A DNA stretch of 64,000 nt from a virus (IMGVR_UViG_3300037067_018433), one strand, 5' to 3'. Positions 7,238-44,220 are shown, numbered from the stretch's first letter. The notes: a model not told the origin generated them from the letters alone. Numbers and translations: made by a program.

Positions 7238-7265
7238 TCTTATGCCGGTTTCGATCCCTGTTTTT
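7238..7265 (-). promoter_or_regulatory. phage-specific bipartite promoter motif, copy 1
   Basis: AAAAA-N14-GGCATAAGA on the minus strand, upstream of a minus-strand block. Confidence 0.65.
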
Positions 7266-7278
7266 ACATCCCCACCAT

Positions 7279-7294
7279 GTGCTATGCTGAGCCC
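7279..7294 (+). promoter_or_regulatory. extended -10 sigma70-like promoter, leaderless
   Basis: TG-C-TATGCT, 6 nt before ATG 7295; no SD. Confidence 0.55.
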
Positions 7295-8686
7295 ATGGAG
7301 CTTGGGGTTCGGCATCTTCGGAAGCTGGCGGAGTTCGCGCCGGGGCTCCCCAGCCGCTCGCGGTACGAGCCGTTGCCGTCGGTTACCGCGCCCAAGCCCT
7401 TCAAGCTGAACATCCAGCGGCACGTCGCCGACCGAGCCGGGGAGCACCTAGATCTTCGGTTGGTGGATCCCGACACGGGGCTCGCGCACAGCTGGGCGCT
7501 CAAGAAGTGGCCCGCTCCGGGTACCGGGACCTACGCCCCTCAACAGCCGACGCATGAAGGGGCGTACGCCGGATGGAGTGGTACGATCCCCACCGGTACG
7601 TACGGAGCTGGGACGGTTGAGAGCCAGCGGCTGGAGGACGCTGAGGTCATCCACAGTTCACCCAACGAGCTGCGCTTCAACCTGTACAGCGGCAAGATCC
7701 CCGAGCAGCTCGTGCTCAAGCGGACGTCGGGTGACCGGATGTGGGTGCTGCACAACGCCACGCCCTCACGCCACACGAAGCACTGGGCCGAACTGCTGCC
7801 GAACTACAAGCCCTCTCTCGGCCACGTGCAGTTCAAGGCGCTCGACCCTACCAAGTCCGACGAAATCTGGCAGCCCAAGATCGACGGGGCCCATGGCATC
7901 GTGGTAGCGGAAGGCGGGAAACCCGTCCGGCTGTTCTCCTATCGCGATGCCAAGAACGAGACTGGATTGATCGAGCACACGCACAAGCTGCCGGAGTGGT
8001 GGAAGAACGTGGCGCCCGCCGGCCTCAAGCCGACGGTGTTGCGCGCGGAGATCACCGGACGTGACTCCTCCGGTAAGCCGGTGCCCAGCGCCACCATCGG
8101 CGGCATCCTCAACGCCACCGTTCCCCACAGCCGCCAGATGCAGACGGATCAAGGGGTGAACCTGCGGCTCATCGGGTTCCGCGTGCAGCGGGAGGACGGC
8201 AAGGTCGTTCCGGACAACGCGCCGTACAAGCCGCAGTTGTCCACCATCCGTAGACTGGCCGCCGACATTCCCGTGCTCTACCCGATGCCGACCGCAGAGA
8301 ACCCCCAGCAGAAGGCCAAGCTGCTGGCGGATGTCGCCTCCGGCCACCACAGCCTCACCGGAGAGGGTGTGGTTGTGATCAAGCCACAGGGCACGTACAA
8401 GGCGCCCATCACCGAGACGCACGACGTCACCATCCGCAAGATTCTGCCGAGCATCAGGGAGGGGGAGGCCGGGGGTTTCGAGTTCAGCTGGGGCGATGGC
8501 CCCGTAGTAGGCGTGGTGGGCACCGGGTTCACCCACGCCCAGAAGCGCGAGATGCTGGCGAAGCCCGCGGACTGGGAGGGACGTGTGGTCAAGGTCACCG
8601 CCAAGCAGCGGTTCCCGAGCGGCGCTCTCCGCGGGGCGGCGTACGTCCAGGAGCACGAATCGAAGTCCCCGACGCCCTTTGGCTAG
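7295..8686 (+). CDS. LigD-type 3'-phosphoesterase fused to an ATP-dependent DNA ligase-like domain
   Basis: PE motifs IQRH..AGEHLDLRL, SWAL, PTH..Y..W.G.IP.G.YGAG.V; ligase motif I PKIDG, EGVVV, OB-fold VGTGFT. Confidence 0.8.
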   Translation: MELGVRHLRKLAEFAPGLPSRSRYEPLPSVTAPKPFKLNIQRHVADRAGEHLDLRLVDPDTGLAHSWALKKWPAPGTGTYAPQQPTHEGAYAGWSGTIPTGTYGAGTVESQRLEDAEVIHSSPNELRFNLYSGKIPEQLVLKRTSGDRMWVLHNATPSRHTKHWAELLPNYKPSLGHVQFKALDPTKSDEIWQPKIDGAHGIVVAEGGKPVRLFSYRDAKNETGLIEHTHKLPEWWKNVAPAGLKPTVLRAEITGRDSSGKPVPSATIGGILNATVPHSRQMQTDQGVNLRLIGFRVQREDGKVVPDNAPYKPQLSTIRRLAADIPVLYPMPTAENPQQKAKLLADVASGHHSLTGEGVVVIKPQGTYKAPITETHDVTIRKILPSIREGEAGGFEFSWGDGPVVGVVGTGFTHAQKREMLAKPADWEGRVVKVTAKQRFPSGALRGAAYVQEHESKSPTPFG

Positions 8687-8722
8687 TTGCCTTCGGTCCA
8701 TACTGCGCGGTACACTGAGTTC
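8687..8722 (+). promoter_or_regulatory. sigma70-like promoter, leaderless
   Basis: TTGCCT-N18-TACACT-N6-ATG(8723). Confidence 0.55.
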
Positions 8723-9208
8723 ATGGAACGAGCCGAAGAGGTTGCCCAGTACCTTCAGGGTTCCCTGCTCGAACGACTCAGGAAGATCGCGGCTGACGAA
8801 GCGGCTGCGTCGACCAAGGTGGCGGCCGCTCCCCCTCCGACTCCGCCTCACGACCCTCCCCCTCTTCCGCTGATGAAGAAGGTGGCGCACCTGTCTTCAT
8901 CCGAGCGTGAAGCACGCCGCGCCCACGGCGCTACCGCCGTCAACATGCTGGCGGACATGCTGTACGGACCGCGGGTCGGTCAGGAGCAGAAGCTCGCGGC
9001 GGCCATCGCCGGCGAGACGTTCAAGGTGGCGGCGAGGGACCTGGCGGATTGGGCTCCTCGATCCAACCCCGTCATCCAGAGCGTGCTGGCGCAGGCGAAT
9101 GTGAAGACGGCGTCAGCCGGTGACCGGGAGACCGCCGAGTACGTCGGGCGCCTGTTGGCCCACGGGCTGTACGCCCGGCACCTGGAGGCGACGGGCGCGT
9201 GCCGATAA
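8723..9208 (+). CDS. K-x-A-rich putative head protein
   Basis: 6 of 7 lysines are in K-x-A; GRLLAHG motif. Confidence 0.65.
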   Translation: MERAEEVAQYLQGSLLERLRKIAADEAAASTKVAAAPPPTPPHDPPPLPLMKKVAHLSSSEREARRAHGATAVNMLADMLYGPRVGQEQKLAAAIAGETFKVAARDLADWAPRSNPVIQSVLAQANVKTASAGDRETAEYVGRLLAHGLYARHLEATGACR

Positions 9209-9738
9209 CAGGCCGTGATCTGGCTCCGATGGCCGACGACGCGTTAGTGCTGGCGACCAGGGTGGTTCGCGCCCTGCGTCAGAAGCAGGAAAAGAAGACG
9301 GAGAAGAAGAAGATGCCGACCAAGACCGCCGAGGAGCTGAACCTGCTGGGGGCCATCGCGTTCGGCCGGGCACTCGCCGAGAGGGATCTCGAGCCGTTCA
9401 AGCTGGCGTACCTGAAGGGCACGACCGTCAAGACGGCGGCCGCCGCAGCGGAGTGGCTCAAGGAGCTCGAGCAGCTGACGAAGAACGCGGACGCCGCGGA
9501 CGTCGCACGCGAGCACCCGTACCTGTCGACGGTCCCGGGGCCGAGAACGGCTGTCGTGAAGGGGCAGGGGCAGGAGCGCGAGACGCACAAGAAGCGCGCG
9601 TCTCTGGGTTCCGCCTACGATACGTTCGCGCAGACGCTGCCCGAGGACCAGCGTGAGTCGTTCTTCAAGATCGCGGAGAAGGTCAACGACGACGTCATTC
9701 GAGCGGCGGCCGTAGTGCTGCCGGCGATGGGGCGCTGA
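9199..9738 (+). CDS. K-x-A-rich putative head protein
   Basis: KTA, KLA, KTA, KNA, KRA, KIA; FGRALAE motif; true start may be further downstream. Confidence 0.65.
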   Translation: MPITGRDLAPMADDALVLATRVVRALRQKQEKKTEKKKMPTKTAEELNLLGAIAFGRALAERDLEPFKLAYLKGTTVKTAAAAAEWLKELEQLTKNADAADVAREHPYLSTVPGPRTAVVKGQGQERETHKKRASLGSAYDTFAQTLPEDQRESFFKIAEKVNDDVIRAAAVVLPAMGR

Positions 9739-9740
9739 CC

Positions 9741-10606: not shown

Positions 10607-10692
10607 CGAATATCTGCGACCGCACCGCACTGGCTACGATTCAGACTAAAGGAAAAGGGAGAGGTAGGACCGGCTACGGCCGGCGTTTCTCC

Positions 10693-10983
10693 CTAGGCAG
10701 CGATGAGGTAGACGCGGGTGGGGATTCCGGGATCCGTGAGCGTGACGATGGCGAAGGTCCCGGGCGCGGGCGTCACCAGCTGGTAGACGCGTCCGGTGTC
10801 GGGGTCGACCCGCGGTTCGCAGGTCGGCGGCGTTCCGGTGTACGCCACCAGGCACTCGGGGGGCACCCACAGGTGCAGCTCCCTCTTCATGCCGATGACC
10901 ACCAGCTCTTCGCCCGGCTTCTCCCCGGGAACCACGGTGCCGGCCTTGAGACCCTGGAGGAACTTCAGCGGCAGCTTCGTCAT
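10693..10983 (-). CDS. hypothetical protein
   Basis: ATGA overlap, GGAG SD. Confidence 0.6.
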   Translation of the reverse strand: MTKLPLKFLQGLKAGTVVPGEKPGEELVVIGMKRELHLWVPPECLVAYTGTPPTCEPRVDPDTGRVYQLVTPAPGTFAIVTLTDPGIPTRVYLIAA

Positions 10984-11159
10984 GTCGCGTTCTCCCTGTT
11001 GCAGATGAGCCGCAGCGCGGTCTCCTGCATGTGATTGACGGACCCCCGGTTGATCAGACGTGCGCGGATGTGCGCCTCGCGGTGGCGGTCGCAGACGGCC
11101 ACCCTGTCCCCCGTGCGGCTATCCCGTCGACAGCCGCACGGTTCGTGGGTGACCCGCAC
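10980..11159 (-). CDS. small Cys/His hypothetical protein
   Basis: TAGTG overlap; CGC...CDRH. Confidence 0.45.
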   Translation of the reverse strand: MRVTHEPCGCRRDSRTGDRVAVCDRHREAHIRARLINRGSVNHMQETALRLICNRENAT

Positions 11160-11626
11160 TACGGCGCCACCTCCGTGGTCACCTCGGCGTGGTACGCGTA
11201 CGGGTTCTCCACCGGACCCCGGAAGGTCACGGTGAACTCCACGCGTAGCGCATCGATGTGGAAGCCCATCTGCAGGGGCCCGACGCCGACGGCCGCCGCG
11301 TCGCCGATGAGCTTGCCGATCCCCGACATGGCGTCCGCCAACTGTGGGCGGAGGACGCGGGGAATGGACATCCCGAAGCCGTTCTCCCCGAGCACGAACG
11401 ACCGCAGCTGCGGGTCGCCGTTGCCGATCAGCTCGAGCTCGGCGCTGAACGGCATGACCAGGTTGGAGCCGTCGACGGTGACCTCGCCGTCGATGGTGAA
11501 CACCCCCTTCACCCCGGGTTCCGTGAACGTGATGCCCTCGGTGATGCCCGTGGCGTAGGCCGCGCCCGCGACGATGCACAGCGACAGACAGACGGAAATG
11601 GCGACGGTGATGATCGTGCGTCTCAT
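11159..11626 (-). CDS. secreted hypothetical protein
   Basis: Signal peptide MRRTIITVAISVCLSLCIVAGAAYA; AAGGAGG SD. Confidence 0.7.
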   Translation of the reverse strand: MRRTIITVAISVCLSLCIVAGAAYATGITEGITFTEPGVKGVFTIDGEVTVDGSNLVMPFSAELELIGNGDPQLRSFVLGENGFGMSIPRVLRPQLADAMSGIGKLIGDAAAVGVGPLQMGFHIDALRVEFTVTFRGPVENPYAYHAEVTTEVAP

Positions 11627-11783
11627 GGAATCCTCCTTGCCCAGTGGGCGGAATGCCGGCGGGTGTCCCCTTGCCGACTCGGGGGCTCCGGAGCTACCCC
11701 GGAGTATTACGCGGCGTCCCAGCCGATAGGTGGGATCGTCAGCTGGTGCCTGGACGGACGCCAACTACTCTTCCCTGCATTGA

Positions 11784-11813
11784 TCTTATGCCAGATCCAA
11801 TAGGAGGATTTTC
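11784..11813 (-). promoter_or_regulatory. phage-specific bipartite promoter motif, copy 2
   Basis: GAAAA-N16-GGCATAAGA. Confidence 0.65.
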
Positions 11814-11814
11814 G

Positions 11815-12459
11815 CTACTTCTTCTTGGGGCTGGCTTGGGCCGCGGTGCGCTCGGCCATGTTCTCGCGGAGGCGCTTCATGTCGGCGAGCAAGCTGCGTC
11901 CCCAGTTCATGGACACCCGGATGCTCCGCGTGCACCCGGCCATGACCCAGCGCGTGTACGGCGTCAGCGTTCGGCACATGTCAGGCAGCCGGAAGTGGAC
12001 AGGCGGCAGGTACCCCAGCAGCATGTATGCCCCGCAGATATCCCAGCTGAAGTCCATGCCGCCACCGGTCAACGCCATCACCGGTTCGTCGTCCACCATC
12101 ACCACGGTCAGTGCGCAGGAGGAGTTGTCCAGGATCTCTTGGGCTTCGCTGGGATTCAGGCGGAGGTTGGGCAGCGGGTAGTAGCAGTTCATCATCGGCG
12201 TGTAGCGATCGGGATTCTCCTGCATCCTGTTCCGGATGGCGTCCTGGATCTTGTCGAGCGGACTGTCCTTGTCCAGCAGCAGATCATCTAGATCCGTGTT
12301 CTCGCCATCCAACCACGCCATGCACTGCTTGCGATCCCAGTCCGTGACGTCGGGGTACACGAGGTCCCACTTCTCGCCGAATCCTTCGGACCAGTAGTAG
12401 TCCACCGGCTTGACGTCGATGGCCGCGCAACTAAGGGCCTTGATCGGTGTTCGCTTCAC
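11815..12459 (-). CDS. hypothetical protein
   Basis: GTG start in GTGA overlap with AAGGAG SD; PMMNCYYPLP and ALTGGGMDFSW motifs. Confidence 0.7.
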   Translation of the reverse strand: MKRTPIKALSCAAIDVKPVDYYWSEGFGEKWDLVYPDVTDWDRKQCMAWLDGENTDLDDLLLDKDSPLDKIQDAIRNRMQENPDRYTPMMNCYYPLPNLRLNPSEAQEILDNSSCALTVVMVDDEPVMALTGGGMDFSWDICGAYMLLGYLPPVHFRLPDMCRTLTPYTRWVMAGCTRSIRVSMNWGRSLLADMKRLRENMAERTAAQASPKKK

Positions 12460-15069: not shown

Positions 15070-15125
15070 CGAGTACGGGAGGCCCTCGCGTGGGGGGTCT
15101 TCGGTGGCCTTCCCCGGGCCTAGCT

Positions 15126-16422: not shown

Positions 16423-16981
16423 CGGGTCCTCCTGATCGCAGCTCGTCCATCATGTCGTTGAACACGTCCCGCGCCTCGTCGCTTTTCCCGAAGATCGCCG
16501 CGAGGTCTCGTCGGCCTAGAGAATCGTTGAGCGCGCTGCACACAGCGTCCGCCATCGCCTTGCCCATGGTCAAACGCAGCTGTCGGCGCTCCTCATCCTT
16601 CGCCTGCTGCGCCTTCAGCGCGGCTGTGAAGGCCGTGGCCCGCGTCTTCTTGTCGGCCGCCACTTGTTCGGCAGTCGGGTAGCTCCAATCCGCCATCTTC
16701 TTGATGGCGTCCGGGTCATGGTCTCCGTCGAGGAGCACGTGCATATCGAGGTCCGTCGGATTGTCTCCCGACTGGACGTCCACATCGAGTCGATCACGGG
16801 CGTCTGGTCGGAGCAGATCTGCCCCCACATACTCAGCCACCGCGTGACGGAACAAGCACTTCGCAGCGTCCCGAAGTCCGTCGTCGATGTTCCGGTTCAG
16901 GAAATGGTCGCCTAGCTCGTGCTGCACCTGCAGCGCGAATGCTGCAGCCACAACTTCTGGGGGGGTCAGCTGCTTGCTCAT
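16409..16981 (-). CDS. hypothetical protein
   Basis: ATGA overlap with recA; AGGAG SD. Confidence 0.6.
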   Translation of the reverse strand: MSKQLTPPEVVAAAFALQVQHELGDHFLNRNIDDGLRDAAKCLFRHAVAEYVGADLLRPDARDRLDVDVQSGDNPTDLDMHVLLDGDHDPDAIKKMADWSYPTAEQVAADKKTRATAFTAALKAQQAKDEERRQLRLTMGKAMADAVCSALNDSLGRRDLAAIFGKSDEARDVFNDMMDELRSGGPDGED

Positions 16982-20278: not shown

Positions 20279-20281
20279 CAG

Positions 20282-25641: not shown

Positions 25642-26231
25642 CGCAACAGCCCCGCTGCCCGCATCTTCGCCAGCACCTGTGGCGGGATGTTCCGCGGGTC
25701 GATACCCTGACCGGGTAGCGCAAGCCCGCTACCCTGGGCACGACGGAACATCTCCTCCATCTCCTTCGCCTCCTTCTCGAGCTTCGCGCTCATCTCCGCC
25801 TGGAGCGCCTCACGGAACTTGAGGCGGATGAACTCTGCTGCGGGGATCGCAGCGTCGATCATCTTGACGCGCGCCACGAAGTCGAGCGGGATGTAGGACG
25901 GGCGGTCCTCCGTGTCGAAGTCCGGGCGCAACGCGCCGATGGTCTGGAGAATCGGGCGCCCACTAGGCGCCTGTGTTGGGAACGCGACCTCGAGGTAGCG
26001 CACCACGCACCGCAATCCGACGCACTTCCGCTGCCCGAAGCTCGCGGGCAGTTCCTCGATTTCGGGGTCGAAGCGTCCGGTGAGCAGCTCGCCGTCCTTC
26101 GTCTTGATGTGGTACCAGACGCCCCCTTCCTCCACCAACTTCTTCTGCTCGGCCTCCATCTGCTCCTGGAGTTCCGGAGGCAGGCCCTCCACGTCCTCTG
26201 CCTCGATCTTGTCCTCCGACGCGTCGCTCAT
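25638..26231 (-). CDS. hypothetical protein
   Basis: ATGA overlap; GGAG SD. Confidence 0.65.
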   Translation of the reverse strand: MSDASEDKIEAEDVEGLPPELQEQMEAEQKKLVEEGGVWYHIKTKDGELLTGRFDPEIEELPASFGQRKCVGLRCVVRYLEVAFPTQAPSGRPILQTIGALRPDFDTEDRPSYIPLDFVARVKMIDAAIPAAEFIRLKFREALQAEMSAKLEKEAKEMEEMFRRAQGSGLALPGQGIDPRNIPPQVLAKMRAAGLLR

Positions 26232-27670: not shown

Positions 27671-27783
27671 CGGAGGCTCCTTTCGTGACCCGCCGGTGCG
27701 CAACCATCGAGGCTGCCACTTGGACGTGGGGTCTGTCAACGAAAAAAATGGACCGAAATCGAAACGCAGAGCGCCAGCAAGTT

Positions 27784-27812
27784 TCTTATGCCTATTTTGA
27801 TCTTTTATTTTC
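27784..27812 (-). promoter_or_regulatory. phage-specific bipartite promoter motif, copy 3 (heads the replication block)
   Basis: GAAAA-N15-GGCATAAGA. Confidence 0.65.
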
Positions 27813-27817
27813 GCGCG

Positions 27818-27853
27818 TTGACACGGTGCGGCGCCCGCGTCTAGTCTTGGATT
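27818..27853 (+). promoter_or_regulatory. sigma70-like promoter, leaderless
   Basis: TTGACA-N18-TAGTCT-N6-ATG(27854). Confidence 0.7.
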
Positions 27854-29089
27854 ATGGAGACGTTGGACATCCAGGATGACCACGGTGCGCTGCTGGCGCT
27901 TGTCGGCGACGCGATCCCCGAGAACATCAAGCAGGCGAGCATCACCGACCTGGACGTCAACCAGGCACCGGACGACCTGTTCGCCCTGGTCATCGAGCGT
28001 GCGGGGCAGCCGCCGCTCCGGAAGTTCGCGTGCAGCGACGGGCCTACCACCTACGTTTCGGCGCTGTACCTCACGCAGACCTACCGGCACCTGACGCCGG
28101 CCGCGGTCAAGACCGCAGCGAAGAGCCTCCTGCAGGCGGCGGACGTCTACCGCGTGACGCTGCCCGCGGATGTGGCGAAGTTGGCGGCGACCGGTGGCCT
28201 GTCGCAGTTCGAGGAGCCCGAGACCAAGGTCGCGGGCCTGGACGACATGCTGAAGGTGATCCGCGAGCGGCGGCAGGAGAACAAGCTGCGGAAGACCGCC
28301 GACCTGACGGGAACCGAGCTCACTCCTGTGGGCACCCCACGTCCACCAACGGACGCCGTCAAGAAGCTGGCGGCCGTCGACAACCACGTATCGTGGTCCG
28401 GACCGACGGTCGAAGAGATCGAGCCGCCCCTTCGCCTCGTCGAGCTCGGCGTCAAGACCGCCGGTGGCAACACCTATCCTCTGGACAAGGTCCGTGACCT
28501 GATGGACCTCGAGCGCGCGTTCGCCCACAACATCACGGCCATCCCCGTGGACGACCGGGTGAAGGTGGCGTGTGCGGTGGTCGAGCGCGAGCAGGACATG
28601 GGCCTCCCGTCGGGCGCCCCCGTGCTCAAGTACGCGGGCAAGAGCTTCCGTTCCGCCCGTGAGCTGGAGCAGGCGCTGTGGTCACGCGTCACCATGGGCA
28701 AGCGCGCGCACAAGGACACCACCGGCTACAACAAGCTGGCGGCGATCAAAGACCCCCAGGAGTACGCCGAGAAGCTGGCGGCCGTCGACCGCTCCATCGG
28801 CCTGGATCGGGAGTGGGACCGCGGGCTCGAGGACCCGTGGGCCGCGACGCTGTCCGCGAAGAAGACCGCCGAGGTCATCTACAACCAGAACGGGGTGTTC
28901 GTCTCCGACCACCAGCTGGAGCGCATGGCCGCCAAGGAACCGAAGAAGGTGCTGTGCGCGATCCTCGACGCCGACATGGTGGAGGAATTCATCAAGGACC
29001 CGGTCGGTGTCTTCCGGTCGATGCCCGAGCCGATGAAGCAGTCCATTGGGCGTCTGGCCAACGACCCGCTGTGGCGGGCTGATCCGTAG
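27854..29089 (+). CDS. K-x-A-rich putative head protein
   Basis: About 14 of 28 lysines are in K-x-A (manual count); apparent internal helical duplication. Confidence 0.7.
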   Translation: METLDIQDDHGALLALVGDAIPENIKQASITDLDVNQAPDDLFALVIERAGQPPLRKFACSDGPTTYVSALYLTQTYRHLTPAAVKTAAKSLLQAADVYRVTLPADVAKLAATGGLSQFEEPETKVAGLDDMLKVIRERRQENKLRKTADLTGTELTPVGTPRPPTDAVKKLAAVDNHVSWSGPTVEEIEPPLRLVELGVKTAGGNTYPLDKVRDLMDLERAFAHNITAIPVDDRVKVACAVVEREQDMGLPSGAPVLKYAGKSFRSARELEQALWSRVTMGKRAHKDTTGYNKLAAIKDPQEYAEKLAAVDRSIGLDREWDRGLEDPWAATLSAKKTAEVIYNQNGVFVSDHQLERMAAKEPKKVLCAILDADMVEEFIKDPVGVFRSMPEPMKQSIGRLANDPLWRADP

Positions 29090-30243: not shown

Positions 30244-30270
30244 TTCCACCTTTCCGCCGCCGCGCTCCTC

Positions 30271-32905: not shown

Positions 32906-32908
32906 CAG

Positions 32909-34846: not shown

Positions 34847-34863
34847 AAGAAAAAGGAGAGGAA

Positions 34864-34898
34864 TGGGGAGTCAGGCAGGTGGACTGCCTGACTCCCCA
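34864..34898. terminator. 15-bp perfect hairpin, probably a terminator between convergent units
   Basis: TGGGGAGTCAGGCAG-GTGGA-CTGCCTGACTCCCCA; A-rich tract at 34845-34854. Confidence 0.6.
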
Positions 34899-35044
34899 GA
34901 GACCTAGCGCTCGACGTTGAGCGTAGGGGGCCGGATTCCTTGGCTCTCGGCGAGACCCGCCCAGAGGCCGAAGAAGATCCCGGCGAACAGCTCACCCAGG
35001 AACAGCATTGGCGTCTCCTTCTGTTGTTAGACGGCGACTACCGG

Positions 35045-35095
35045 CTACCCGGGTTGTCGCATGTCGTCGATGAGCTCTTCCAGCTCATCCAGCAA
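35045..35095 (-). CDS. 16-aa micropeptide MLDELEELIDDMRQPG
   Basis: TTG start after GGAGAAAGGG; same length and similar C-terminus as 35215-35265. Confidence 0.35.
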   Translation of the reverse strand: MLDELEELIDDMRQPG

Positions 35096-35214
35096 AGGGA
35101 GGCCCTTTCTCCGTCGATCAGCAGTCGGCGGTCGGGGACCCGATAACCATCAGGTCGTGGCCAACGGCCCTGTTGCCGTATGGCTTCCCGGCTGCCTGGG
35201 TGCTTCTCTGAGGA

Positions 35215-35265
35215 CTACCCCGGTTTGCGCGCGTCGTCCAAGTCGTCGTCCGGCGTTGTCTTCAT
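35215..35265 (-). CDS. 16-aa micropeptide MKTTPDDDLDDARKPG
   Basis: ATG after AAAGGAG; first SD-preceded ORF after promoter motif copy 4. Confidence 0.4.
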   Translation of the reverse strand: MKTTPDDDLDDARKPG

Positions 35266-35308
35266 CAACTTCTCCTTTCTGGAGAGCAGCACACTCTCCT
35301 ACCAATGA

Positions 35309-35338
35309 TCTTATGCCGAATTCCCCTATCCCCTTTTC
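35309..35338 (-). promoter_or_regulatory. phage-specific bipartite promoter motif, copy 4
   Basis: GAAAA-N16-GGCATAAGA. Confidence 0.65.
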
Positions 35339-35368
35339 TCTACGGCCGTTCACGGGGTAGTATGGGGT

Positions 35369-38300
35369 ATGCCCGCTGTTCCCGGACAGACCAAGGTGCG
35401 CGCGGTCCTCGATCCGAACTCCGAGATGGAGGTAGTCAAGGACTCCGCTACCTCGGCCATGAACGACGTGTTCCCGATCGTCGGAAAGACACGAGAGCTT
35501 CGACTGGGCAACGTGCGGGTGGACGACACGCTGTCGTGGGATGATCTTCGTGGGCAGCTGGATGCCAAGCTCAACGAGAAGACGTGGGGCGTGCCGCTCA
35601 ACGGAACGCTGTCGTTGATCGACAAGCTGTCGGGCAAAGTCCTGGACAAGAAGGATGTGCGGCTAGCGGAGTTGCCGAAGCTGACGCCGCGTCTCAGCTA
35701 CCTGGTCAACGGCCAGGAGTATCAGCTGGACAAGCAGTGGCGCCTCAAGCCCGGGATCTACGCACGCGTGAAGGACAACGGGGAACTGGAGAGCCACATC
35801 AACGTGGCGGGCGGCGAGCGCTACGCCCTCAACTTCGACCCGACCAGCCGCCGCTTCATGTTCGACCACGCCGGATCAAGCATCCCGCTGTTCCCGATGT
35901 TGCGCGCGCTGGGTGTCGACGACAGCACGCTGCGGCTGTCTTGGGGCAAGGAGATCTACGACGCGAACGCCACCGAGAAGTACGAGGGCGCCATCCGCAA
36001 GTTCTACCGGGTGTCCACGGGCAAGGAAGCACCGTCCCTGGACGTGGCGGTGCAGCACCTGCGACAAACGCTGCCCGCCAAGGAGCTCAGCCCTGATGTG
36101 ACCGAGCACACGCTGGGCGTGCGCGTCGACCGGCTCAACGGACAGGCTTTGGCCCTCGCCTCGAAGAACCTGCTCAGCATCGCGCGTGGTACGCGAGAAC
36201 CCGACGATCGCGACGCCATCCTGTTCAAGAACCTGTTCAGCACCGAGGACTACGTCGGGGAGAAGATCCGGGTCATGGGCTCGGGTCTCCGCCGGCGCCT
36301 CACCAACACCATCGACCGCCACAACAACCTCGAGCACCTGGTGTACCCCGGCATGTTCGACAAGGCGGTGGCCAGCGTGTTCACGGAGTCCGCGGTCAGC
36401 CGCATCCCGACCCAGGACAACCCCGTCGAGATGCTCGAGGGCTTCAGCCGCACCACGATCATCGGGCCCGGGGCCATCGGCGACACGCGGATGGTCACGG
36501 ACGAAGCGAAGGCCGTGGACAAGAGCCACCTCGGGTTCCTCGATCCGATCGACACGCCGGAAGGCGAGAAGGTGGGCATCGCCAGCCACCTGGCGCTCGG
36601 CGTCTCCAAGAAAGGCAACGAGCTGTTCACGCCCGTGTACGACGTCCGCCAGAAGCGGATGGTGCCGATCAATACAGCCACCTTCTACCGGTCGAACGTC
36701 GCGCTGCCGGACAGCGTGCGCTGGGTCGAGCGCAACGGTACCAAGGTCCCCGAGGCCGTGGACAAGCAGGTGCGCATCGCGGGCCCCGGCAACGACATGG
36801 CCGACGTACCGTGGGACAAGGTGGACTACGTCATCCCCAACGCCGCCATGCTGATGGGCACGGGCACGAATCTGGTGCCGTTCGCCCAGAACAACTCGGG
36901 CAACCGCCTGTCGATGAGCGCGCGCCACCTGGGGCAGACCGTACCGTTGGTACACCGGGAAGCGGCGCTGGTGCAGTCCGCGGGTCCCGAGGGCAAGTCC
37001 ATGGACCGACTGCCTGGCGCGTTGACCGCGGCCAGTTCCCGGGTCGCCGGCGTGGTCACGAAGGTCGAGCGCGGCGCCATCCACATCCGGGATGCCGCCG
37101 GCAAGTCTCACACCCACCAGATCTACGACTACTTCCCGCTCAACGACAAGCGAACCGGGATCCATGCGGAGCCCGTGGTCAAGGTGGGCGACCACGTGAA
37201 GGACGGCCAGCTGATCGCGGATTCGTGGTTCACGAAGGATGGGCGCCTGGCCATCGGCGCCAACATGCGCACGGCGTTCCTCGCGCTGCCCGTGATGACG
37301 CACGAGGACTCGGTCGTCATCTCCGAGTCCGCTGCGAAGAACTTGGCGAGCTTGCATCTCCACCGGCACCAGTTCGTACCGGACGAGAACACCAAGGTGG
37401 GCAAGGCGCCGTTCGCCGCCTACTACCCGGCGCGCTACGGCAGCACCCAGCTGGACAAGCTGGACAGCGACGGTATCGTGCGCGAAGGGCAGAAGGTGGT
37501 GCCGGGGGATCCCCTGACGCTGGCCCTTCGCCCCCAGCAGTACACCACCGAGACCCAGGCCATCGCCCGGTTGTCCAAGTCCCTGGTCAAGCCGTATGCG
37601 GACACGTCCACGACCTGGGAGCAGGACGTGCCGGGGACCGTCGTCCGTGTGCACAAGCTGCCGGACGGCCGCGCGCACGTCGTGATCGCTACCGAAGAGC
37701 CCATGCAGGTGGCTGACAAGCTGAGCAACAGACACGCCGGCAAGGGCACCGTGGGCGCAGTCTACCGTGACGATCAAATGCCGAAGGACAAGAACGGCAA
37801 GCCGGTGGACATCGTCATGAACCCGTACGCCATCCCTGGTCGCCAGAACATCGGCCAGGTCTACGAGATGGCGGCCGGCAAGATCGCCATCAAGACAGGC
37901 AAGCCGTACATGACCCGCAACTACCAACCGGGCGTGGACTACGGCGAGCTGCTGCGGAAGGAAATGAAGGAACACGGGCTGGACGAGCAGGAAGAACTGT
38001 TCGACGCCCAGACCGGAGCGTCGTTGGGCAAGGCGCTTGTCGGGCCCATGTACATCCTCAAGCAGCGGCACCAGGTCGACCGTAAGATCCACGCGCGCGC
38101 CGGGGGCCCGGGGTATCCGTACGATATCGACCGGCAACCGCGGCGTGGCGGTGAAGGCGGAGCGCAGAGTCTCGGGGGGCTGGGGGAGCTGGCGCTGCTG
38201 GCGCATGGCGCACGCAGCATTCTGCGCGAGGCGCACAGCTCGAAGTCCGACATGGCGTCTCAGGATGAGATGTGGCGGGCCATCCAGCTGGGCCAGCCGC

Positions 38301-41300
38301 TTCCTCCTCCGAGACCGACGTTTGCCCAGAAGAAGTTCGAGGGCTACCTCAACACGCTCGGCGTCCGCCTGAAGAAGGACGGGACTCGCGTCCAGATGGT
38401 GCCGCTGACCGACCACGACACCCTGCGCATGAGCAGTGGGGCCCTCAGCAAGCCGAACCTCACGCTCAAGGGGCACGAGTTGATCCCGGAGACAGGCGGG
38501 CTGTTCGACCCCCATGTTACCGGCGGGCTCGATGGCGACCGCATGAGCCACATCCAGCTGCCGGAGTCCATCCCCAACCCGTTCTTCGAGCGCGGGGTGC
38601 TGGCGTTGACCGGCATGACCCAGGACCAGCTGCTGGATGTTCTGGGCGGCCGCCTGGCGGTGGACAAGGAGCGCAAGCTGGTCGCGGCCAAGACCCCCGG
38701 CTCCCGTACCGGGTCCGACGCCGTGGGTTGGATGCTCGACCAGGTGGACGTGAAGAAGGACGCTATCACCGTCCGCGCGCAGCTCCCCAAGTTGACGGGT
38801 ACCCAGCTGGACCGCTCCAACCGGAAGCTGCGGTATCTCGAGGCGCTGGATGAGGTGGGTCTCCGACCGCGGACCGCGTACATGACCAGCGTGATCCCCG
38901 TGCTCCCCCCGACCATGCGCCCGCTGACCGTGCTGCCGACCGGGGATCTCGCATCCGACCCCCTCAACGAGACGTACAAGGCTCTGGGCACCGTCGTCTC
39001 CAAGTACGAGGACATGGACCCGAGCCTTCCCGACCGCAGCCGTGGGCGCCTGCGCAAGGAGTTGTACACGTCGCTCTCCGCGCTTCAAGGAGTGGGCGCC
39101 GGCTACAAGCGCATCCAGGGGGGAGAAACCCAGGGCATCATGGATGTGTTCACGCAGCCGACCGCCAAGCACGCGTGGATCTTCCAGCACCTGTTCAAGC
39201 CGCGCCAGGACCTATCGGCGCGCTCGGTCATCACCCCGGATCCCGACATCACCATCGATGAGGTTGGCGTACCCCACCGCATCGCCACCGAGATCTTCAA
39301 GCCGTTCACCGTCCGCGAGCTCAGCCGCGTTGGGTACAGTCCGCTGCAAGCCGAGCAGATGATCAAGGCGAACGACCCGATGGCTGAAGCGTCCCTGCGC
39401 AAGGTGATGAGCGAGAAGCTGGTGCTCATGAAGCGGGACCCGGTGCTCCACCAGCAGGGCATTCAGGCGCTCAAGCCGATCATGCGCAAGGGGCTGTCCA
39501 TAACGATAAACCCTATGATTGCCGCGGGATACGGGGCGGACTTCGACGGAGATCAAACGGCGTTGTTCGTTCCCCAGTCGCCGGCCGCCCAGCAAGAAGC
39601 GCGGGGGATGCTACCGTCGGTCAACCTCCTGCACAAAGCGTCCGGGCGCCCGGTGTACGCGCCGACCAACGAAATGCAGCTCGGATTGTTCCGCGCCACG
39701 ACCATCAAACCCGACCCGCATGCGCCGAACTACAAGACAGTGGAAGAGGCGCTGGCCGCAGCTGTCGCCGGCAAGCAGAAATGGGGAACGATCAATGTTG
39801 GCGGGCGTGCGACAACCATGGGCCGCGTTCGATTGTGGGCCACGCTTCCGATGGACATGCGCAAGGACGCCATCCTGTACGACCCCAACGTGGTGTGGAA
39901 CTCCAAGGTCACTGGCGGGTTCCTCAAGCAGCTGGCCGAGACCCATGCCCCCGAGTACGCGGGCGTCGCGCAGAAGGTCATGAACCTGGGCGCGAGCAAC
40001 GTCTACGAGCAGGCCTTCAGCCTGTCGTTGAACGACTTCCGCACCGACACCCAGTCGAGGGACGCCGCGTTCCGCACGGCGAACTCCGACATCCGCAAGC
40101 TGCCGGCGACCCTGTCCAAGATCGACCGCGACTCCAAGACCGTCGGCATCTGGGTGAACGCCGGCGAGGCCATGGAGAAGGCGCACTGGGACAAGGTCAC
40201 GGCGAACCCCCCGCAGCTGGCGATGATGGCGCTGGCCGGGATCAAGCCATCGCGTGACCAGTACAAGCAGCTGGTGATGGCGCCCATGATCGTAGCGGGA
40301 ATCAAGGGCAAGCCCATCCCGGTGCCCGTCGGCCACTCGTTCAGCGAAGGGCTCACGACCTCCGACTTCTGGACCCAGGCGCAGGCCGCGCGTGTCGCGT
40401 CCATGCGCAAGACCCAGGAGGTCCGGGAGCCGGGGTACCTCTCCAAGCAGATCATCAACACCGTGGCCGATACCGTGGTGGCGTCCCGCGACTGTGGGAC
40501 AACCGAGGGTATCGCGATGGCCGTCGACCACCCGGACGTCACCGATAGATACCTGGCGAAGGCCGCGCCCGGGGCGGCTGCCGGGGGGCTCGTCACCCAG
40601 TCGCTTGTGGATCACTGGAGGAAGGAAGGGACGCAGTCGGTTGTCGTCCGTTCCCCGCTCAAGTGCAAGCTGCCGCAAGGGATCTGTCAACGCTGCTCAG
40701 GGCTGATGGGGGACGGGCATCTCCCTGGAATAGGTACCAATATCGGGGTCATTGCCGGACAGGCGCTTGGAGAACGATCAACCCAGCTTATGCTGAAATC
40801 GGTTCATTGTCTGCACGAGCACACGGTAGTTACCGTTCGTTGTAGGAAACGTGTTTGGAGCACCACCTTGGGGCGTCTGTACGAACGGTATGCCCCTACC
40901 ACTAGGGTTGGATCTGCTCCTGTTGACGACCTGTCGGTGTGGTCCAACGGGAAGTGGAACAAGATCCGTTCGGTGGTTTGCCACGAGCAAACACCCGGAA
41001 CAACCATGGTGATGCTCAAAACCCGCGCTGGAGGCTTCATCATCAGCCAGGACAACCACCCCCACATGTTGGCGGAGGCCCCGACTATCTGCGCGTGTGG
41101 AACGATTCCGAAACCTGAGAACGCCAAACGGCGGATCAGCGGTTGGTGGTGTAGGAAGTGCGGAGTTCGGGTAAAGGTGTTGGCTCCGTCTTCACCCGTG
41201 TTGGCAGTTGAGCCACGATCCATAGGACGTCGTACCCATAACGCCGTCCTTGTTCCCCCTCCTCCTGCTGATTGGGTTGGTGTTCCCCTACAGGACGGCT

Positions 41301-42805
41301 GGCTCGCTGGGATGTACGCAGCTGAAGGATGCGTACAGGTAATGTCGTACGACTACATGTGGAAGGACGGGGTGACCAAATCGAGGTACTCCTATCGTGT
41401 AGGCGTAGACATTGCCGAGCCGAAGGGGTTTCTGCAAAAGCGCGTCTTGCAGTCAGCAAAGCAGGAGCACCCACGCCTGCGGGTTACTCACGATAGCAGG
41501 AAGGTGCACTTCTACGACGTATCGACCGCTGCGTACTATGAGCGCTGTTTCGGCCGGTACGCTTGGAATAAAGGGCTTCCTGATGGGTGGACAGGCTTCA
41601 ACCGAAAGTGGCTTGGTGACTTCCTCGCTGGAATGATCGACGGCGATGGTACGGTATCGAGGAATCAAGAAAGCTGTTGGTACAATGTAGGGATCAGCAC
41701 GACCAGCGCCCTGTTGGCAGAGCAACTTCGTTGGATAGTGGAGCGCCTGGGTGGCTGTGCCCACGTCAACACTACCCCATGGAGGAAAAGCAAGATCAGG
41801 CGTAAGGATGGATCGATACGCCCGGTGGTATCCAAGCATCAAGGGTACATTGTGGGGTTCTCGTACACCGCACCCCTGGTGGGTTGGTTGGGTGAGTGCA
41901 CTAAGTTGGGCGGTATCCCTGCGCGAGAAAAAAACATCGAGCAGGCGCAACCCGAACTGGTGGAGTTCATACAGCCCATCCGTTTCTTGGAAACGCCTCT
42001 CGTGTATGATCTCGAGACGGAAGACGGCACGCTGGCCGCCAACGGTATCTGGACGCACAACAGTGGAGGCGTCGTGGGCAAGGGATCCGGGTCCTCGGCC
42101 ATCAACCAGTTCGACCGCATCGAGCACCTACTGCGCATGCCCAAGGTCATCCCGAACGCCGCGGTGTTGGCGGAGAACGAGGGGGTGGTCAAGTCGGTAC
42201 GTGCGGATCCCGCCGGCGGGTTCCGGGTAGGCATCGAGGCCCACGGGAAGCTGGTGGACCACCACGTTCCGGGTACGACTAAGCTGGCGCCCGACGTGCG
42301 CGCCGGGTATAGGGTGTCCGCCGGTACCCCGTTGTCGACGGGCTACATCAACATGCACGACCTCCTGCGCACGGCGGGCTTGCCCGCGGTCCAGAATCAG
42401 ATCACGAACGAGCTGGACGACATCTACCGGCCGCAGGGCATCCGTAGACGCAACGTCGAGGTCGTCGTGCGGGGCATCACCAACCTGGGCCAGGTCGAGG
42501 ACGCAGGCGGCCACGAGCACATGCGGCGGGGCGACATGGTCCCGCTGTCCGTGGTCCATGGGTGGAACGAGAGCCACAAGGATCACATCAAGGTGAGCCC
42601 GATGCTCAAGGGCATTGCGTTCGCACCGCTGGACCTCACCGAGGACTGGATGTCGAAGCTGCACCACGAGCGGCTCAAGGACACGCTGGTTGACGCGGCA
42701 CTCGAGGGCCACCAGGCCGACGTCGCCGGCCTGAACCCGTTCTCTGCGATCGCGTTTTCCCCGGGTTTCGGCACGGGGCTGTCCGGTAAGCCGGGGGCCT
42801 ACTGA
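35369..42805 (+). CDS. rpoBC: single-chain beta-beta' DNA-directed RNA polymerase, intein-containing
   Basis: beta motifs DTPEG, LVPF..NNSGNR.SM, HEDS, DKLSNRHAGKG, PSR-like PGRQNIGQ; beta' motifs PVLPPTMRP, R.VI.P, RDPVLH, catalytic GADFDGD, GYL, ALGE..TQL. Confidence 0.95.
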   Translation: MPAVPGQTKVRAVLDPNSEMEVVKDSATSAMNDVFPIVGKTRELRLGNVRVDDTLSWDDLRGQLDAKLNEKTWGVPLNGTLSLIDKLSGKVLDKKDVRLAELPKLTPRLSYLVNGQEYQLDKQWRLKPGIYARVKDNGELESHINVAGGERYALNFDPTSRRFMFDHAGSSIPLFPMLRALGVDDSTLRLSWGKEIYDANATEKYEGAIRKFYRVSTGKEAPSLDVAVQHLRQTLPAKELSPDVTEHTLGVRVDRLNGQALALASKNLLSIARGTREPDDRDAILFKNLFSTEDYVGEKIRVMGSGLRRRLTNTIDRHNNLEHLVYPGMFDKAVASVFTESAVSRIPTQDNPVEMLEGFSRTTIIGPGAIGDTRMVTDEAKAVDKSHLGFLDPIDTPEGEKVGIASHLALGVSKKGNELFTPVYDVRQKRMVPINTATFYRSNVALPDSVRWVERNGTKVPEAVDKQVRIAGPGNDMADVPWDKVDYVIPNAAMLMGTGTNLVPFAQNNSGNRLSMSARHLGQTVPLVHREAALVQSAGPEGKSMDRLPGALTAASSRVAGVVTKVERGAIHIRDAAGKSHTHQIYDYFPLNDKRTGIHAEPVVKVGDHVKDGQLIADSWFTKDGRLAIGANMRTAFLALPVMTHEDSVVISESAAKNLASLHLHRHQFVPDENTKVGKAPFAAYYPARYGSTQLDKLDSDGIVREGQKVVPGDPLTLALRPQQYTTETQAIARLSKSLVKPYADTSTTWEQDVPGTVVRVHKLPDGRAHVVIATEEPMQVADKLSNRHAGKGTVGAVYRDDQMPKDKNGKPVDIVMNPYAIPGRQNIGQVYEMAAGKIAIKTGKPYMTRNYQPGVDYGELLRKEMKEHGLDEQEELFDAQTGASLGKALVGPMYILKQRHQVDRKIHARAGGPGYPYDIDRQPRRGGEGGAQSLGGLGELALLAHGARSILREAHSSKSDMASQDEMWRAIQLGQPLPPPRPTFAQKKFEGYLNTLGVRLKKDGTRVQMVPLTDHDTLRMSSGALSKPNLTLKGHELIPETGGLFDPHVTGGLDGDRMSHIQLPESIPNPFFERGVLALTGMTQDQLLDVLGGRLAVDKERKLVAAKTPGSRTGSDAVGWMLDQVDVKKDAITVRAQLPKLTGTQLDRSNRKLRYLEALDEVGLRPRTAYMTSVIPVLPPTMRPLTVLPTGDLASDPLNETYKALGTVVSKYEDMDPSLPDRSRGRLRKELYTSLSALQGVGAGYKRIQGGETQGIMDVFTQPTAKHAWIFQHLFKPRQDLSARSVITPDPDITIDEVGVPHRIATEIFKPFTVRELSRVGYSPLQAEQMIKANDPMAEASLRKVMSEKLVLMKRDPVLHQQGIQALKPIMRKGLSITINPMIAAGYGADFDGDQTALFVPQSPAAQQEARGMLPSVNLLHKASGRPVYAPTNEMQLGLFRATTIKPDPHAPNYKTVEEALAAAVAGKQKWGTINVGGRATTMGRVRLWATLPMDMRKDAILYDPNVVWNSKVTGGFLKQLAETHAPEYAGVAQKVMNLGASNVYEQAFSLSLNDFRTDTQSRDAAFRTANSDIRKLPATLSKIDRDSKTVGIWVNAGEAMEKAHWDKVTANPPQLAMMALAGIKPSRDQYKQLVMAPMIVAGIKGKPIPVPVGHSFSEGLTTSDFWTQAQAARVASMRKTQEVREPGYLSKQIINTVADTVVASRDCGTTEGIAMAVDHPDVTDRYLAKAAPGAAAGGLVTQSLVDHWRKEGTQSVVVRSPLKCKLPQGICQRCSGLMGDGHLPGIGTNIGVIAGQALGERSTQLMLKSVHCLHEHTVVTVRCRKRVWSTTLGRLYERYAPTTRVGSAPVDDLSVWSNGKWNKIRSVVCHEQTPGTTMVMLKTRAGGFIISQDNHPHMLAEAPTICACGTIPKPENAKRRISGWWCRKCGVRVKVLAPSSPVLAVEPRSIGRRTHNAVLVPPPPADWVGVPLQDGWLAGMYAAEGCVQVMSYDYMWKDGVTKSRYSYRVGVDIAEPKGFLQKRVLQSAKQEHPRLRVTHDSRKVHFYDVSTAAYYERCFGRYAWNKGLPDGWTGFNRKWLGDFLAGMIDGDGTVSRNQESCWYNVGISTTSALLAEQLRWIVERLGGCAHVNTTPWRKSKIRRKDGSIRPVVSKHQGYIVGFSYTAPLVGWLGECTKLGGIPAREKNIEQAQPELVEFIQPIRFLETPLVYDLETEDGTLAANGIWTHNSGGVVGKGSGSSAINQFDRIEHLLRMPKVIPNAAVLAENEGVVKSVRADPAGGFRVGIEAHGKLVDHHVPGTTKLAPDVRAGYRVSAGTPLSTGYINMHDLLRTAGLPAVQNQITNELDDIYRPQGIRRRNVEVVVRGITNLGQVEDAGGHEHMRRGDMVPLSVVHGWNESHKDHIKVSPMLKGIAFAPLDLTEDWMSKLHHERLKDTLVDAALEGHQADVAGLNPFSAIAFSPGFGTGLSGKPGAY
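40808..42061 (+). mobile_element. intein (418 aa) with LAGLIDADG homing endonuclease
   Basis: Starts CLHEHT, ends VYDLET...GIWTHN before Ser; GWLAGMYAAEG and FLAGMIDGDG motifs; visibly lower GC. Confidence 0.93.
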
Positions 42806-43893
42806 TGGGCAACAGTCCTGCGTCGTCCGGGCTGCATGCCGCTCGAATCCTTCGCGCACGTGTCACCAACGTCGACACGCGACGGTACACGGTCGACGTG
42901 CAGACCGAGCAAGAGAACCGCGACTACCCCAACGTGCAGATCGGCTCTCCGATGTACCACTTCCTTGGCGAGGGCCAAGGTGGTCTTCCGGACATCGGGG
43001 CACGGTGTCTGATCGCCATACCGTCCGACGACACACCGCCCACCATCCTGGTGTTCCTGGACCTGCCGTTCATGGCGTCGCCCACCGAACTGGAGCAGGG
43101 TGGCGGATCGGACCTTCCACAGGCGGGCAGCGACGAGTACCAGATGTCGTTCGCCGGCGCCAAGCCCAAGTGCTTGCCGGGCGACTACTGGCTCATTGGA
43201 CGCGACGGCAACTTCTTCTTCCTCCGACGCGGCGGGACGATCCAGGAGGGGGCGAGTGCCTTCTGCCAGCGCATGTACCTCCGCCCGCGCAACGTCATCC
43301 GCGACTTCTGCGAGAACTACCTGCTGTCGACCGTGGGCATCGACTTGTTGCTGGAGAGCGAACGGGAGGCGGACAGCGATTCCGTAGATCTCGGAACGCA
43401 CCTCCGGCTCCAGGTCAACGAGCTGCTGGGGGACACCAAGGCCACGGTACTGCTGGAGGCAGGCAAGCTGGGGGACGACAAGGTCCTGCGGCTAGCGGTG
43501 GTCGAGGAAGGGATCGACCGCGCATCGGGGTCCTACGCCAACCCGGACGCCGAGTGGTCGGTCAAGAAGGATGGAACGGTCGACGGTGTGTTCGGTGCCA
43601 CGACGCTCGAGTACCAGTCGCTGGACGAGTCGGTGATCGGCAACCGTACGGAGACCATCCGCGGCCGTACATCGTTGAGCGCGCTGGACAGCAGCGAGGA
43701 CATCACGGGCACGAAGCGCATCGAGGCCACGACCATCCAGCTCTCGGGGAAGGTCATCTTTGGATCAGGGGCTCAGCCGATCTGCGGGAACGCCGACGCG
43801 TTCTACCAGTGGTGCCTCACCCATACGCACGACGCCAGCGGGGTGCCCGTTCCCCCTCCCCCTCCGATCGCTATCCGCAACGTCGTAGGCTAA
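42805..43893 (+). CDS. baseplate central spike (gpV/gp5-like)
   Basis: N-terminal OB-like ARVTNVD...LPDIGARCLI; beta-rich body; C-terminal HTH (HxH) apex motif. Confidence 0.65.
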   Translation: MGNSPASSGLHAARILRARVTNVDTRRYTVDVQTEQENRDYPNVQIGSPMYHFLGEGQGGLPDIGARCLIAIPSDDTPPTILVFLDLPFMASPTELEQGGGSDLPQAGSDEYQMSFAGAKPKCLPGDYWLIGRDGNFFFLRRGGTIQEGASAFCQRMYLRPRNVIRDFCENYLLSTVGIDLLLESEREADSDSVDLGTHLRLQVNELLGDTKATVLLEAGKLGDDKVLRLAVVEEGIDRASGSYANPDAEWSVKKDGTVDGVFGATTLEYQSLDESVIGNRTETIRGRTSLSALDSSEDITGTKRIEATTIQLSGKVIFGSGAQPICGNADAFYQWCLTHTHDASGVPVPPPPPIAIRNVVG

Positions 43894-43942
43894 AGGAAAG
43901 AGCCGGTGTTAGGACGCCCCGAACGGGGCCACCGGCCTGTTG

Positions 43943-44146
43943 CTACTCGCCTTCGACCCGGTGCCCGTACCCCTCATCGGGCTCGGAGCTCCGCAGCACG
44001 GCGAACACCAGCAGGGGGACCGTCAACCACAGGCTCCCGAGGCCTTGATCGACGAGCCCCCAGACAAGCAGTACGCAGAACCCGATGGTCACCAGCTTCC
44101 ACCAGAACCACGACAGACGTCCCGTACGATGCGAGCAGCCAGGCAT
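43943..44146 (-). CDS. small membrane protein
   Basis: Two hydrophobic helices; AAGGAGG SD; directly downstream of promoter motif copy 5. Confidence 0.6.
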   Translation of the reverse strand: MPGCSHRTGRLSWFWWKLVTIGFCVLLVWGLVDQGLGSLWLTVPLLVFAVLRSSEPDEGYGHRVEGE

Positions 44147-44165
44147 ACTGTTCCTCCTTCAGCTG

Positions 44166-44195
44166 TCTTATGACAGATCGAATCTGCCGGTTTTC
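44166..44195 (-). promoter_or_regulatory. phage-specific bipartite promoter motif, copy 5
   Basis: GAAAA-N16-GTCATAAGA. Confidence 0.6.
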
Positions 44196-44220
44196 ACCAC
44201 AAACAACCGCGTGGTACGCT
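44193..44220 (+). promoter_or_regulatory. sigma70-like promoter
   Basis: TTCACC-N16-TACGCT with TGn; same arrangement and the 12-mer GCGTGGTACGCT recur at 59227-59254. Confidence 0.55.

Follow-up and report, generated by a model that had tools for sequence, protein, structure and literature searches.

A CATAAG promoter-like motif accompanied by a phage-encoded sigma factor and a fused RNA polymerase in a lineage of large phages

Which enzyme transcribes the non-structural genes of a phage that encodes an RNA polymerase (RNAP) of its own? The question is raised by a 64,000-nt stretch of phage DNA (hereafter the window; 65% G+C), part of the 203,683-bp metagenomic phage contig IMGVR_UViG_3300037067_018433. 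The window holds the gene for a fused beta-beta' RNAP and a short bipartite motif, an A-rich box followed by CATAAG, ahead of minus-strand genes that include the replication block. Our comparisons suggest that this motif is probably the promoter of a phage-encoded transcription system, read by a phage sigma factor together with the fused polymerase and not by the host enzyme. The region read was a 98.4-kb composite (window -34401 to 64000, ~98 of 204 kb) assembled from a Logan contig. The Logan assembly (SRR6484325) holds an identical 132-kb copy of the contig; one base, at window 488, mismatched the SRR6484325 contig, and the remaining compared overlaps were identical.

A directional motif ahead of non-structural genes

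We found five matches to AAAA-N15/16-GKCATAAGA in the window, all on the minus strand (cores at 7238, 11784, 27784, 35309 and 44166), whereas 100 dinucleotide-preserving shuffles yielded a mean of 0.00 and a maximum of 0. The 9-mer core alone was observed five times against 0.21 expected. All five copies are intergenic with respect to the called genes, and each points into a minus-strand unit; four occupy divergent gaps, and that at 11784 is flanked by two minus-strand genes and directly follows the stop codon of the upstream one. A first-pass annotation had described five intergenic minus-strand copies upstream of minus-strand genes, and its exact cores were recovered. Across the composite, CATAAG occurs eight times, never on the plus strand, and six of the eight belong to the full motif; the sixth full copy, at window -3631 (3.6 kb left of the window), is also in a divergent gap. 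Among the last-base variants of the hexamer, only CATAAG occurs in the composite.

Alignment of the minus-strand copies revealed a GnGAAAA box, 16-18 unrelated nt, CATAAG, 4 nt and NTG (Table 1). The distance from box to hexamer is 16-18 nt in all six of the phage's own copies and in seven copies of relatives, and NTG stands exactly 4 nt past the hexamer in 6/6 own copies and in 12/14 once relatives are added. When CATAAG is set as -12 to -7, the conserved T/G falls at -1/+1. A pyrimidine/purine start is usual for bacterial promoters, and we infer that transcription starts ~7 nt downstream of the hexamer at this T(-1)/G(+1). Three copies carry TGn directly upstream of the hexamer. The second hexamer position is an invariant A and the last is G in every copy, so that a -10 rule calling for A at -11 and T at -7 finds the A but not the T. 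Host housekeeping sigma-70 strongly prefers T at -7; the G therefore departs from the housekeeping sigma, not from the sigma-70 family overall.

This geometry is that of a standard sigma-70-family promoter, and the motif is thus not the novel kind of signal that had been proposed. It resembles sigma-70-family and extended -10 (TGn-TATAAT) promoters in having two boxes 16-18 nt apart, an invariant A and a pyrimidine/purine step 6-7 nt downstream, and differs from them in G for T at -7, in C at -12 in the high-G+C subfamily and in GnGAAAA for TTGACA. The sigma-28/FliA consensus is TAAA-N15-GCCGATAA; the pairing of the A-rich box with an 8-nt GGCATAAG 15-16 nt further on is similar to it, a likeness to be taken as a lead only.

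Several other kinds of element were considered. At five sites, predicted folding was no better than in shuffles (z -1.7 to +1.2) and the spacers were unrelated; hairpin formation thus stayed at the chance level, which rules out N4-like hairpin promoters. No dyad symmetry was found at the motif sites. A sigma-54 promoter (GG-N10-GC) was rejected by inspection of the six copies, none of which has GC 10 nt past GG. A leaderless start at the NTG was likewise rejected, since the true starts have ribosome-binding sites 14-190 nt downstream; the ATG at 7234, just past the motif, does not serve as a start codon. Every motif-headed unit has a leader of 14 to ~190 nt that ends in a strong AAGGAGG-type ribosome-binding site.

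The units that follow are diverse. That the motif precedes the whole replication block, as first proposed, holds for the copy at 27784, whose minus-strand block contains an SF2 helicase (26228-27670), UDG, DnaB (22560-23948), DNA polymerase A (18326-20278), a RecA-like ATPase (16978-18177) and a PD-(D/E)XK nuclease. The unit of copy 1 comprises the gene at 6254-7162, a transfer-messenger RNA (tmRNA) at 5011-5397 with the tag ANDNVVRLSDRRAPAFAPVAAAA, a tRNA-Pro(TGG) at 4805-4879, both on the minus strand, and genes down to ~2548. Because the tmRNA and tRNA-Pro lie inside this unit, the CATAAG class would also drive stable RNAs. Very short minus-strand units, surrounded by virion genes of the plus strand, follow the copies at 35309 and 44166: the former unit (34850-35303) contains micro-open reading frames (micro-ORFs) and a 34-aa hydrophobic ORF (34904-35008), and the latter is a 67-aa gene (43943-44146) preceded by a 14-nt leader with GAAGGAGG. 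Judging from the gene arrangement, we propose that every non-structural unit so far observed is transcribed from this class, whether it is the replication block, the unit with the tmRNA and tRNA, or one of the small accessory units in the virion module. Separately, we observed in the unit of copy 4 an acidic micro-ORF of 16 aa, served by its own ribosome-binding site, and, at the end of the unit, a strong hairpin (~34850-34900) common to the convergent portal gene.

Table 1. Motif copies, second-class promoters and genes of the transcription apparatus (window coordinates unless noted)
Feature	Position	Strand	Description
Motif copy 1	7232..7267	-	GTAAAAA, 16 nt, CATAAG (7239-7244), ATAA, ATG; predicted start G 7232
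Motif copy 2	11778..11815	-	GCGAAAA, 18 nt, CATAAG (11785-11790), ATCA, ATG; heads 11159-11626, 10693-10983
Motif copy 3	27778..27814	-	GCGAAAA, 17 nt, CATAAG (27785-27790), AAAC, TTG; heads ~16-kb replication block
Motif copy 4	35303..35340	-	GAGAAAA, 18 nt, CATAAG (35310-35315), ATCA, TTG; heads ~450-nt unit
Motif copy 5	44160..44197	-	GTGAAAA, 18 nt, CATAAG (44167-44172), ACAG, CTG
Second-class promoter (predicted)	7283..7297	+	TGc-TATGCT, 6 nt, ATG 7295; gene ending 8686
Second-class promoter (predicted)	27818..27856	+	TTGACA (27818), 18 nt, TAGTCT (27842), 6 nt, leaderless ATG; gene 27854-29089
Polymerase-gene promoter (predicted)	35358..35371	+	TAGTAT, 5 nt, leaderless ATG
Second-class promoter (predicted)	44189..44247	+	GGTTTTCACC, 16 nt, TGG-TACGCT (44215), leader with AGGAGG, ATG 44245
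TAGCAT hexamer in AGnTAGCAT element	50556..50561 (element 50556-50569)	-	Upstream of gene 49737-50522
Fused beta-beta' RNA polymerase, 2478 aa	35369..42805	+	Rpb2/Rpb1 domain matches, including Rpb2_6 1.5e-52
Sigma-70-family protein P0145, 250 aa	L009:2918-3670, ~30.7 kb left of window	+	In virion-gene cluster, adjoins pyrophosphatase-domain gene

Polymerase, sigma factor and motif across the lineage

The polymerase gene was confirmed to lie in the virion module behind a TAGTAT hexamer, between portal and terminase genes (a weak portal match at 32909-34846 and a clear large terminase at 48049-49740, E=8e-41). Its product is interrupted by a LAGLIDADG intein of ~420 aa (aa ~1814-2233, window ~40808-42067), which follows H1813 in the beta' part and has a G+C of 0.60. 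We identified more than 100 metagenomic homologues, ~2050 aa long, whose contigs reach 215 kb. Inteins in these relatives number none, one or several, at various sites, and the terminase of one relative (L090) also carries one. A region that, in our reading, aligns with the clamp helices of E. coli beta' is conserved in 12 relatives. A viral-contig search with the polymerase returned no relative, and a search of a phage DNA collection gave no near match; a metagenome scan with the polymerase alignment was dominated by cellular rpoBC and supplied only L010 and L011 as useful relatives.

The composite also encodes P0145, which by its sequence and its predicted structure is a sigma-70-family protein. 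Its best sequence matches in the PDB are regions 2-3 of SigA/HrdB (E=6e-6), with a weak Pfam match for region 3 (E=0.0033), and its AlphaFold model (pLDDT 72) matches sigma factors over the full length with E down to 3.5e-7. We found 17 clusters of P0145 orthologues in metagenomes (45-78% identity), and 16 of 16 orthologues matched sigma-70-family NCBIfam models; the sigma fits no curated subfamily (34.7 bits vs cut-offs of 190-700). P0145 and gp10 of Salmonella phage Arash are orthologous over the full length (26% identity, E=2e-25), and a homologue search seeded with the Arash sigma did not retrieve P0145. The first-pass annotation had assigned the motif to the fused polymerase; the polymerase gene is indeed present, but the phage-encoded sigma factor had not been linked to it.

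We then compared sites divergent from the polymerase gene in uncultured relatives. The motif is present at the syntenic site in L002 (68% G+C; polymerase 68% identical), L090 (46% G+C; 58% identical) and L091 (60% G+C; 52% identical), the last of which has four copies, each heading a minus-strand unit. The syntenic site is likewise occupied in L010, by TATAAG with a CGAAAT box, and in L011, by CATAAG-N4-RTG, which stands there at two divergent junctions and is paired with another upstream box. Because flanks and spacers are unrelated between relatives, the motif is a footprint and not residual similarity.

The cultured phage Arash, whose polymerase is 31% identical to that of the window phage, has the same layout, with structural genes and sigma on one strand and non-structural genes on the other. 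The most over-represented 8-mer of its genome is GGTATAAG, with 30 copies on the minus (non-structural) strand vs one on the plus strand; controls with the reversed pattern gave 4 and 6. Aligned, the Arash copies read TGG-TATAAG-N4-GTG and lead into a ribosome-binding site and ATG. They often lie directly after hairpin-plus-T-tract terminators and have TGn directly before the hexamer in 24/30 cases; this likeness to extended -10 promoters recurs often in Vibrio phage D181. The sole plus-strand copy is just upstream of gp9-gp10 (sigma). In D181, too, both the sigma and the polymerase gene have orthologues. It shows TATAAG-N5-TG 23 times on one strand vs 4 on the other (controls 4 and 1), and its intergenic copies are 15/15 on the minus strand. 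The last hexamer base is G in 23 Arash copies vs 1 A, 3 C and 1 T, and in 23 D181 copies vs 3 T, while the TATAAT form is at background level in both phages. In D181 the signal emerged only with TATAAG-N5-TG: k-mer screens gave none, and GGYATAAG was not enriched (10 vs 2; controls 8 and 6).

Two further observations concern the Arash genome. Its non-structural strand has 17 hairpin-plus-CTTTTTAG terminators, and its structural strand (OQ632216.1) carries five identical copies of TATAAGGGTCTTG at 26744, 66491, 100247, 138594 and 173368 (+), at ~35-40-kb intervals, which we cannot explain.

Collectively, these comparisons support the view that the motif is a real promoter-like signal with a fixed orientation, specific to this lineage of phages. 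The window phage, Arash and D181 each have all three of sigma, polymerase and motif. Since G at -7 is uniform in phages of Salmonella, Vibrio and other hosts at 46-68% G+C, a phage-encoded reader is favoured.

A second, host-like promoter class

Two promoter classes had been suggested from the window alone, and this division held: the motif marks replication and other non-structural units, and host-like TAnnnT promoters mark virion genes. With the same filter on both strands of the ~98 kb, TA(G)nnT stands 5-6 nt before a leaderless ATG/GTG at eight plus-strand starts vs none on the minus strand. In some of these promoters the hexamer is preceded by TGn, or by TTGACA at 16-18 nt. The polymerase-gene promoter is kept in four phages (the window phage, L002, L090 and L091) as TAGTAT/TAGAAT/TAGACT, 5-6 nt and ATG. 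By sequence, the second class is like the usual promoters of a housekeeping sigma, and the host enzyme may be its reader. A strict scan with the E. coli consensus missed the plus-strand promoters. Clues to the host are divided, TAG-type -10 hexamers, leaderless starts and actinobacterial SigA matches in the PDB standing against a tmRNA tag that begins ANDN. In Arash, TAGWCT was not enriched and no plus-strand leaderless class was found, so that the second class was not seen there.

The gene at 49737-50522 is the sole minus-strand gene of the virion module, and in the window phage, L002 and L090 it is preceded by AGnTAGCAT without the CATAAG motif. This TAGCAT is a second-class signal on the minus strand, and promoter class thus tracks gene function and not merely strand. 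In L091, AGnTAGCAT stands in tandem with a CATAAG-class copy. We also observed that AGnTAGCAT is conserved in four phages (the window phage, L002 ~14830, L090 ~16800 and L091 18463), upstream of a helix-turn-helix (HTH)-like 261-aa gene.

The two classes meet at the divergent gaps. Four copies of the motif were verified to be back-to-back with a plus-strand TAnnnT promoter (hexamers at 7283, 27842, 35358 and 44215). The A-tract was said to lie in or next to the plus-strand -35 region, and this is borne out: it forms the reverse complement of that region at 7238, 35309 and 44166 and lies 3 nt from TTGACA at 27784. Actual overlap of the A-tract box with the divergent -35 region is found in 3/6 copies (7238, 35309 and 44166) and not at -3631, 11784 and 27784; for this reason a switch function is only a possibility.

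Two side observations touch this class. The promoter at 44189-44222 (+) and another at ~window -3560 (L003) are near-identical over ~34 nt (GGTTTTCACC, 16 nt, TGGTACGCTGG), a pair that suggests a tighter consensus inside the host-like class. In the composite, CATAAG-class mRNAs are leadered with AAGGAGG and many second-class mRNAs are leaderless; promoter class could be coupled to translation mode.

Candidate readers of the motif

The reading that we consider probable can be set out as a mechanistic model. P0145 would bind the fused beta-beta' polymerase to form a holoenzyme, which would recognize the -35-like GnGAAAA, a 16-18-nt spacer and the -10-like CATAAG (C at -12, A at -11 and G at -7), with the transcript beginning ~7 nt downstream at T(-1)/G(+1). 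The TA(G)nnT class would serve the virion genes and the polymerase gene, and probably the sigma gene as well. Both the assignment of an enzyme to each class and the early timing of the motif class are what we infer from the sequence. Delivery of the enzyme in the virion is a possibility that we hold tentatively, by analogy with mass spectrometry of the 31%-identical Arash, in whose purified particles beta, beta' and sigma are among the most abundant proteins (PMC10585845). The most far-reaching version is rather unlikely to hold as a whole: a packaged and injected self-contained holoenzyme (one-chain beta-beta' plus a sigma with changed -12/-7 specificity) would read a YATAAG code ignored by the host, host-type promoters would serve the virion genes, and shared -35 base pairs would exclude one enzyme at a time and act as a timing switch.

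Several points weigh against this model. The -35-like box is not conserved in L011, Arash and D181. Perfect TTGACA-N17/18-TAnnnT promoters, often in a GCTTGACAcc context, occur on the non-structural strand 10 times in Arash and 7 times in D181, and never on the other strand; judged by sequence, host RNAP probably reads them as a temporal class apart and may start the programme there. Because they share the strand of the motif in both phages, the motif may mark middle rather than the earliest genes. The Arash virion list comprises 116 proteins, including ribonucleotide reductase, ligases and helicases, and its authors note possible carry-over (PMC10585845). The phage sigma, whose regions 2-3 are most like those of housekeeping sigmas, could instead read the TA(G)nnT class, or could work with the host core enzyme.

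This last arrangement is developed in the closest rival, in which the phage sigma directs host core RNAP to the motif and the fused polymerase serves another class or role. Phage sigmas that redirect the host core are a textbook case (SPO1 gp28 and T4 gp55), and it is in regions 2-3, where sigmas bind the core, that P0145 most resembles its cellular counterparts. We nevertheless regard this rival as unlikely: sigma, polymerase and motif co-occur in every lineage examined, the phage enzyme has kept the region aligned to the beta' clamp helices, and the same motif core is found across phages of 45-68% G+C with hosts as unlike as Salmonella and Vibrio, which is easier to explain by a whole enzyme travelling with the phage. 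Covariation between the -12 base (C/T) and the residues aligned to sigma-70 Q437/T440 (K/H in the window phage, R/K in Arash and A/S in D181) was also considered and rejected, with two clades and no clear rule.

It is less likely still, and in our estimate quite improbable, that the host reads the motif through an alternative sigma of the sigma-28/sigma-32 type, or through its housekeeping sigma with a MotA-like activator at GnGAAAA. There is a loose likeness to group-3 sigma promoters such as TAAA-N15-GCCGATAA, and in a TAAGAT register four window copies fit TAnnnT. The final T of that register, however, is present in only ~6/13 copies while the preceding CA is invariant, and the core with G at -7 is used by Salmonella and Vibrio phages alike with the TATAAT form at background. 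Hosts so different are not expected to share an alternative-sigma consensus that matches no known one. Finally, that the motif is no promoter but a repressor operator, a replication or packaging signal or a mobile-element scar is hardly credible: several copies do overlap the divergent promoter's -35 region, as operators often do, but the motif has no dyad symmetry, is strictly co-directional with the downstream genes, stands at every non-structural unit start even without a divergent promoter (11784), consistently precedes leaders with ribosome-binding sites, and in Arash occurs in 30 same-strand copies before genes, often directly past terminators.

A phage sigma acting with the fused polymerase would set this lineage apart from known systems. 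N4 uses a virion RNAP for early genes and host sigma-70 RNAP for late genes. A likeness to it is possible, in that the phage would use its own enzyme on non-structural genes and promoters of host type on virion genes, among which the polymerase gene lies. The analogy drawn initially does not, however, extend to the anatomy: N4 packages a T7-like enzyme of a single subunit, which needs no sigma to recognize DNA hairpins, whereas here a multisubunit-type enzyme is accompanied by a sigma and the sites form no hairpin. SPO1 gp28 and T4 gp55/gp33 are similar in combining a phage sigma-family protein with a uniform private consensus on a functional subset of genes, but those phages use the host core, and this lineage also encodes a near-complete bacterial-type beta-beta'. 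Phages phiKZ and AR9 encode beta/beta' relatives, one set of which is packaged, and have phage-specific promoters independent of the host (PMC7598289, PMC7824862); their enzymes, however, come in 4-5 pieces and two sets with no canonical sigma (PMC7824862), in contrast to one fused chain plus sigma here. The closest relatives are the RNAP-encoding Caudovirales termed mReC (PMC7481178) and Arash (PMC10585845), with a homologous polymerase near the portal, an orthologous sigma in structural clusters, non-structural genes on the opposite strand and a shared YATAAG-N4-NTG, although the Arash annotation has separate genes for beta and beta'. The traits that define Arash-like/mReC phages, beta/beta' homologues in a tailed phage and an orthologous sigma inside the structural cluster, were both found in the window phage.

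The lineage itself is thus already known from metagenomics (PMC7481178) and from Arash (PMC10585845), and the word 'promoter' is absent from both papers. A literature text search with the hexamer and phage/sigma terms returned nothing relevant. A 2021 survey reported that polymerase-encoding jumbo phages were without sigma and sigma-encoding ones without polymerase (PMC7824862). Phages had been known to come either with a sigma-less polymerase of their own or with a sigma that acts on the host's core enzyme; here a bacterial-type core and a sigma both seem to be supplied, and the promoter code differs from that of the host by a single base. If true, this would be a natural orthogonal transcription system of bacterial type, offering a handle on how -7/-12 recognition by sigma region 2 may be re-specified and a means of annotating gene classes and units of transcription across a large family of phages that is mostly uncultured and whose two cultured members, Arash and the Vibrio D-series phages, make the system directly testable.

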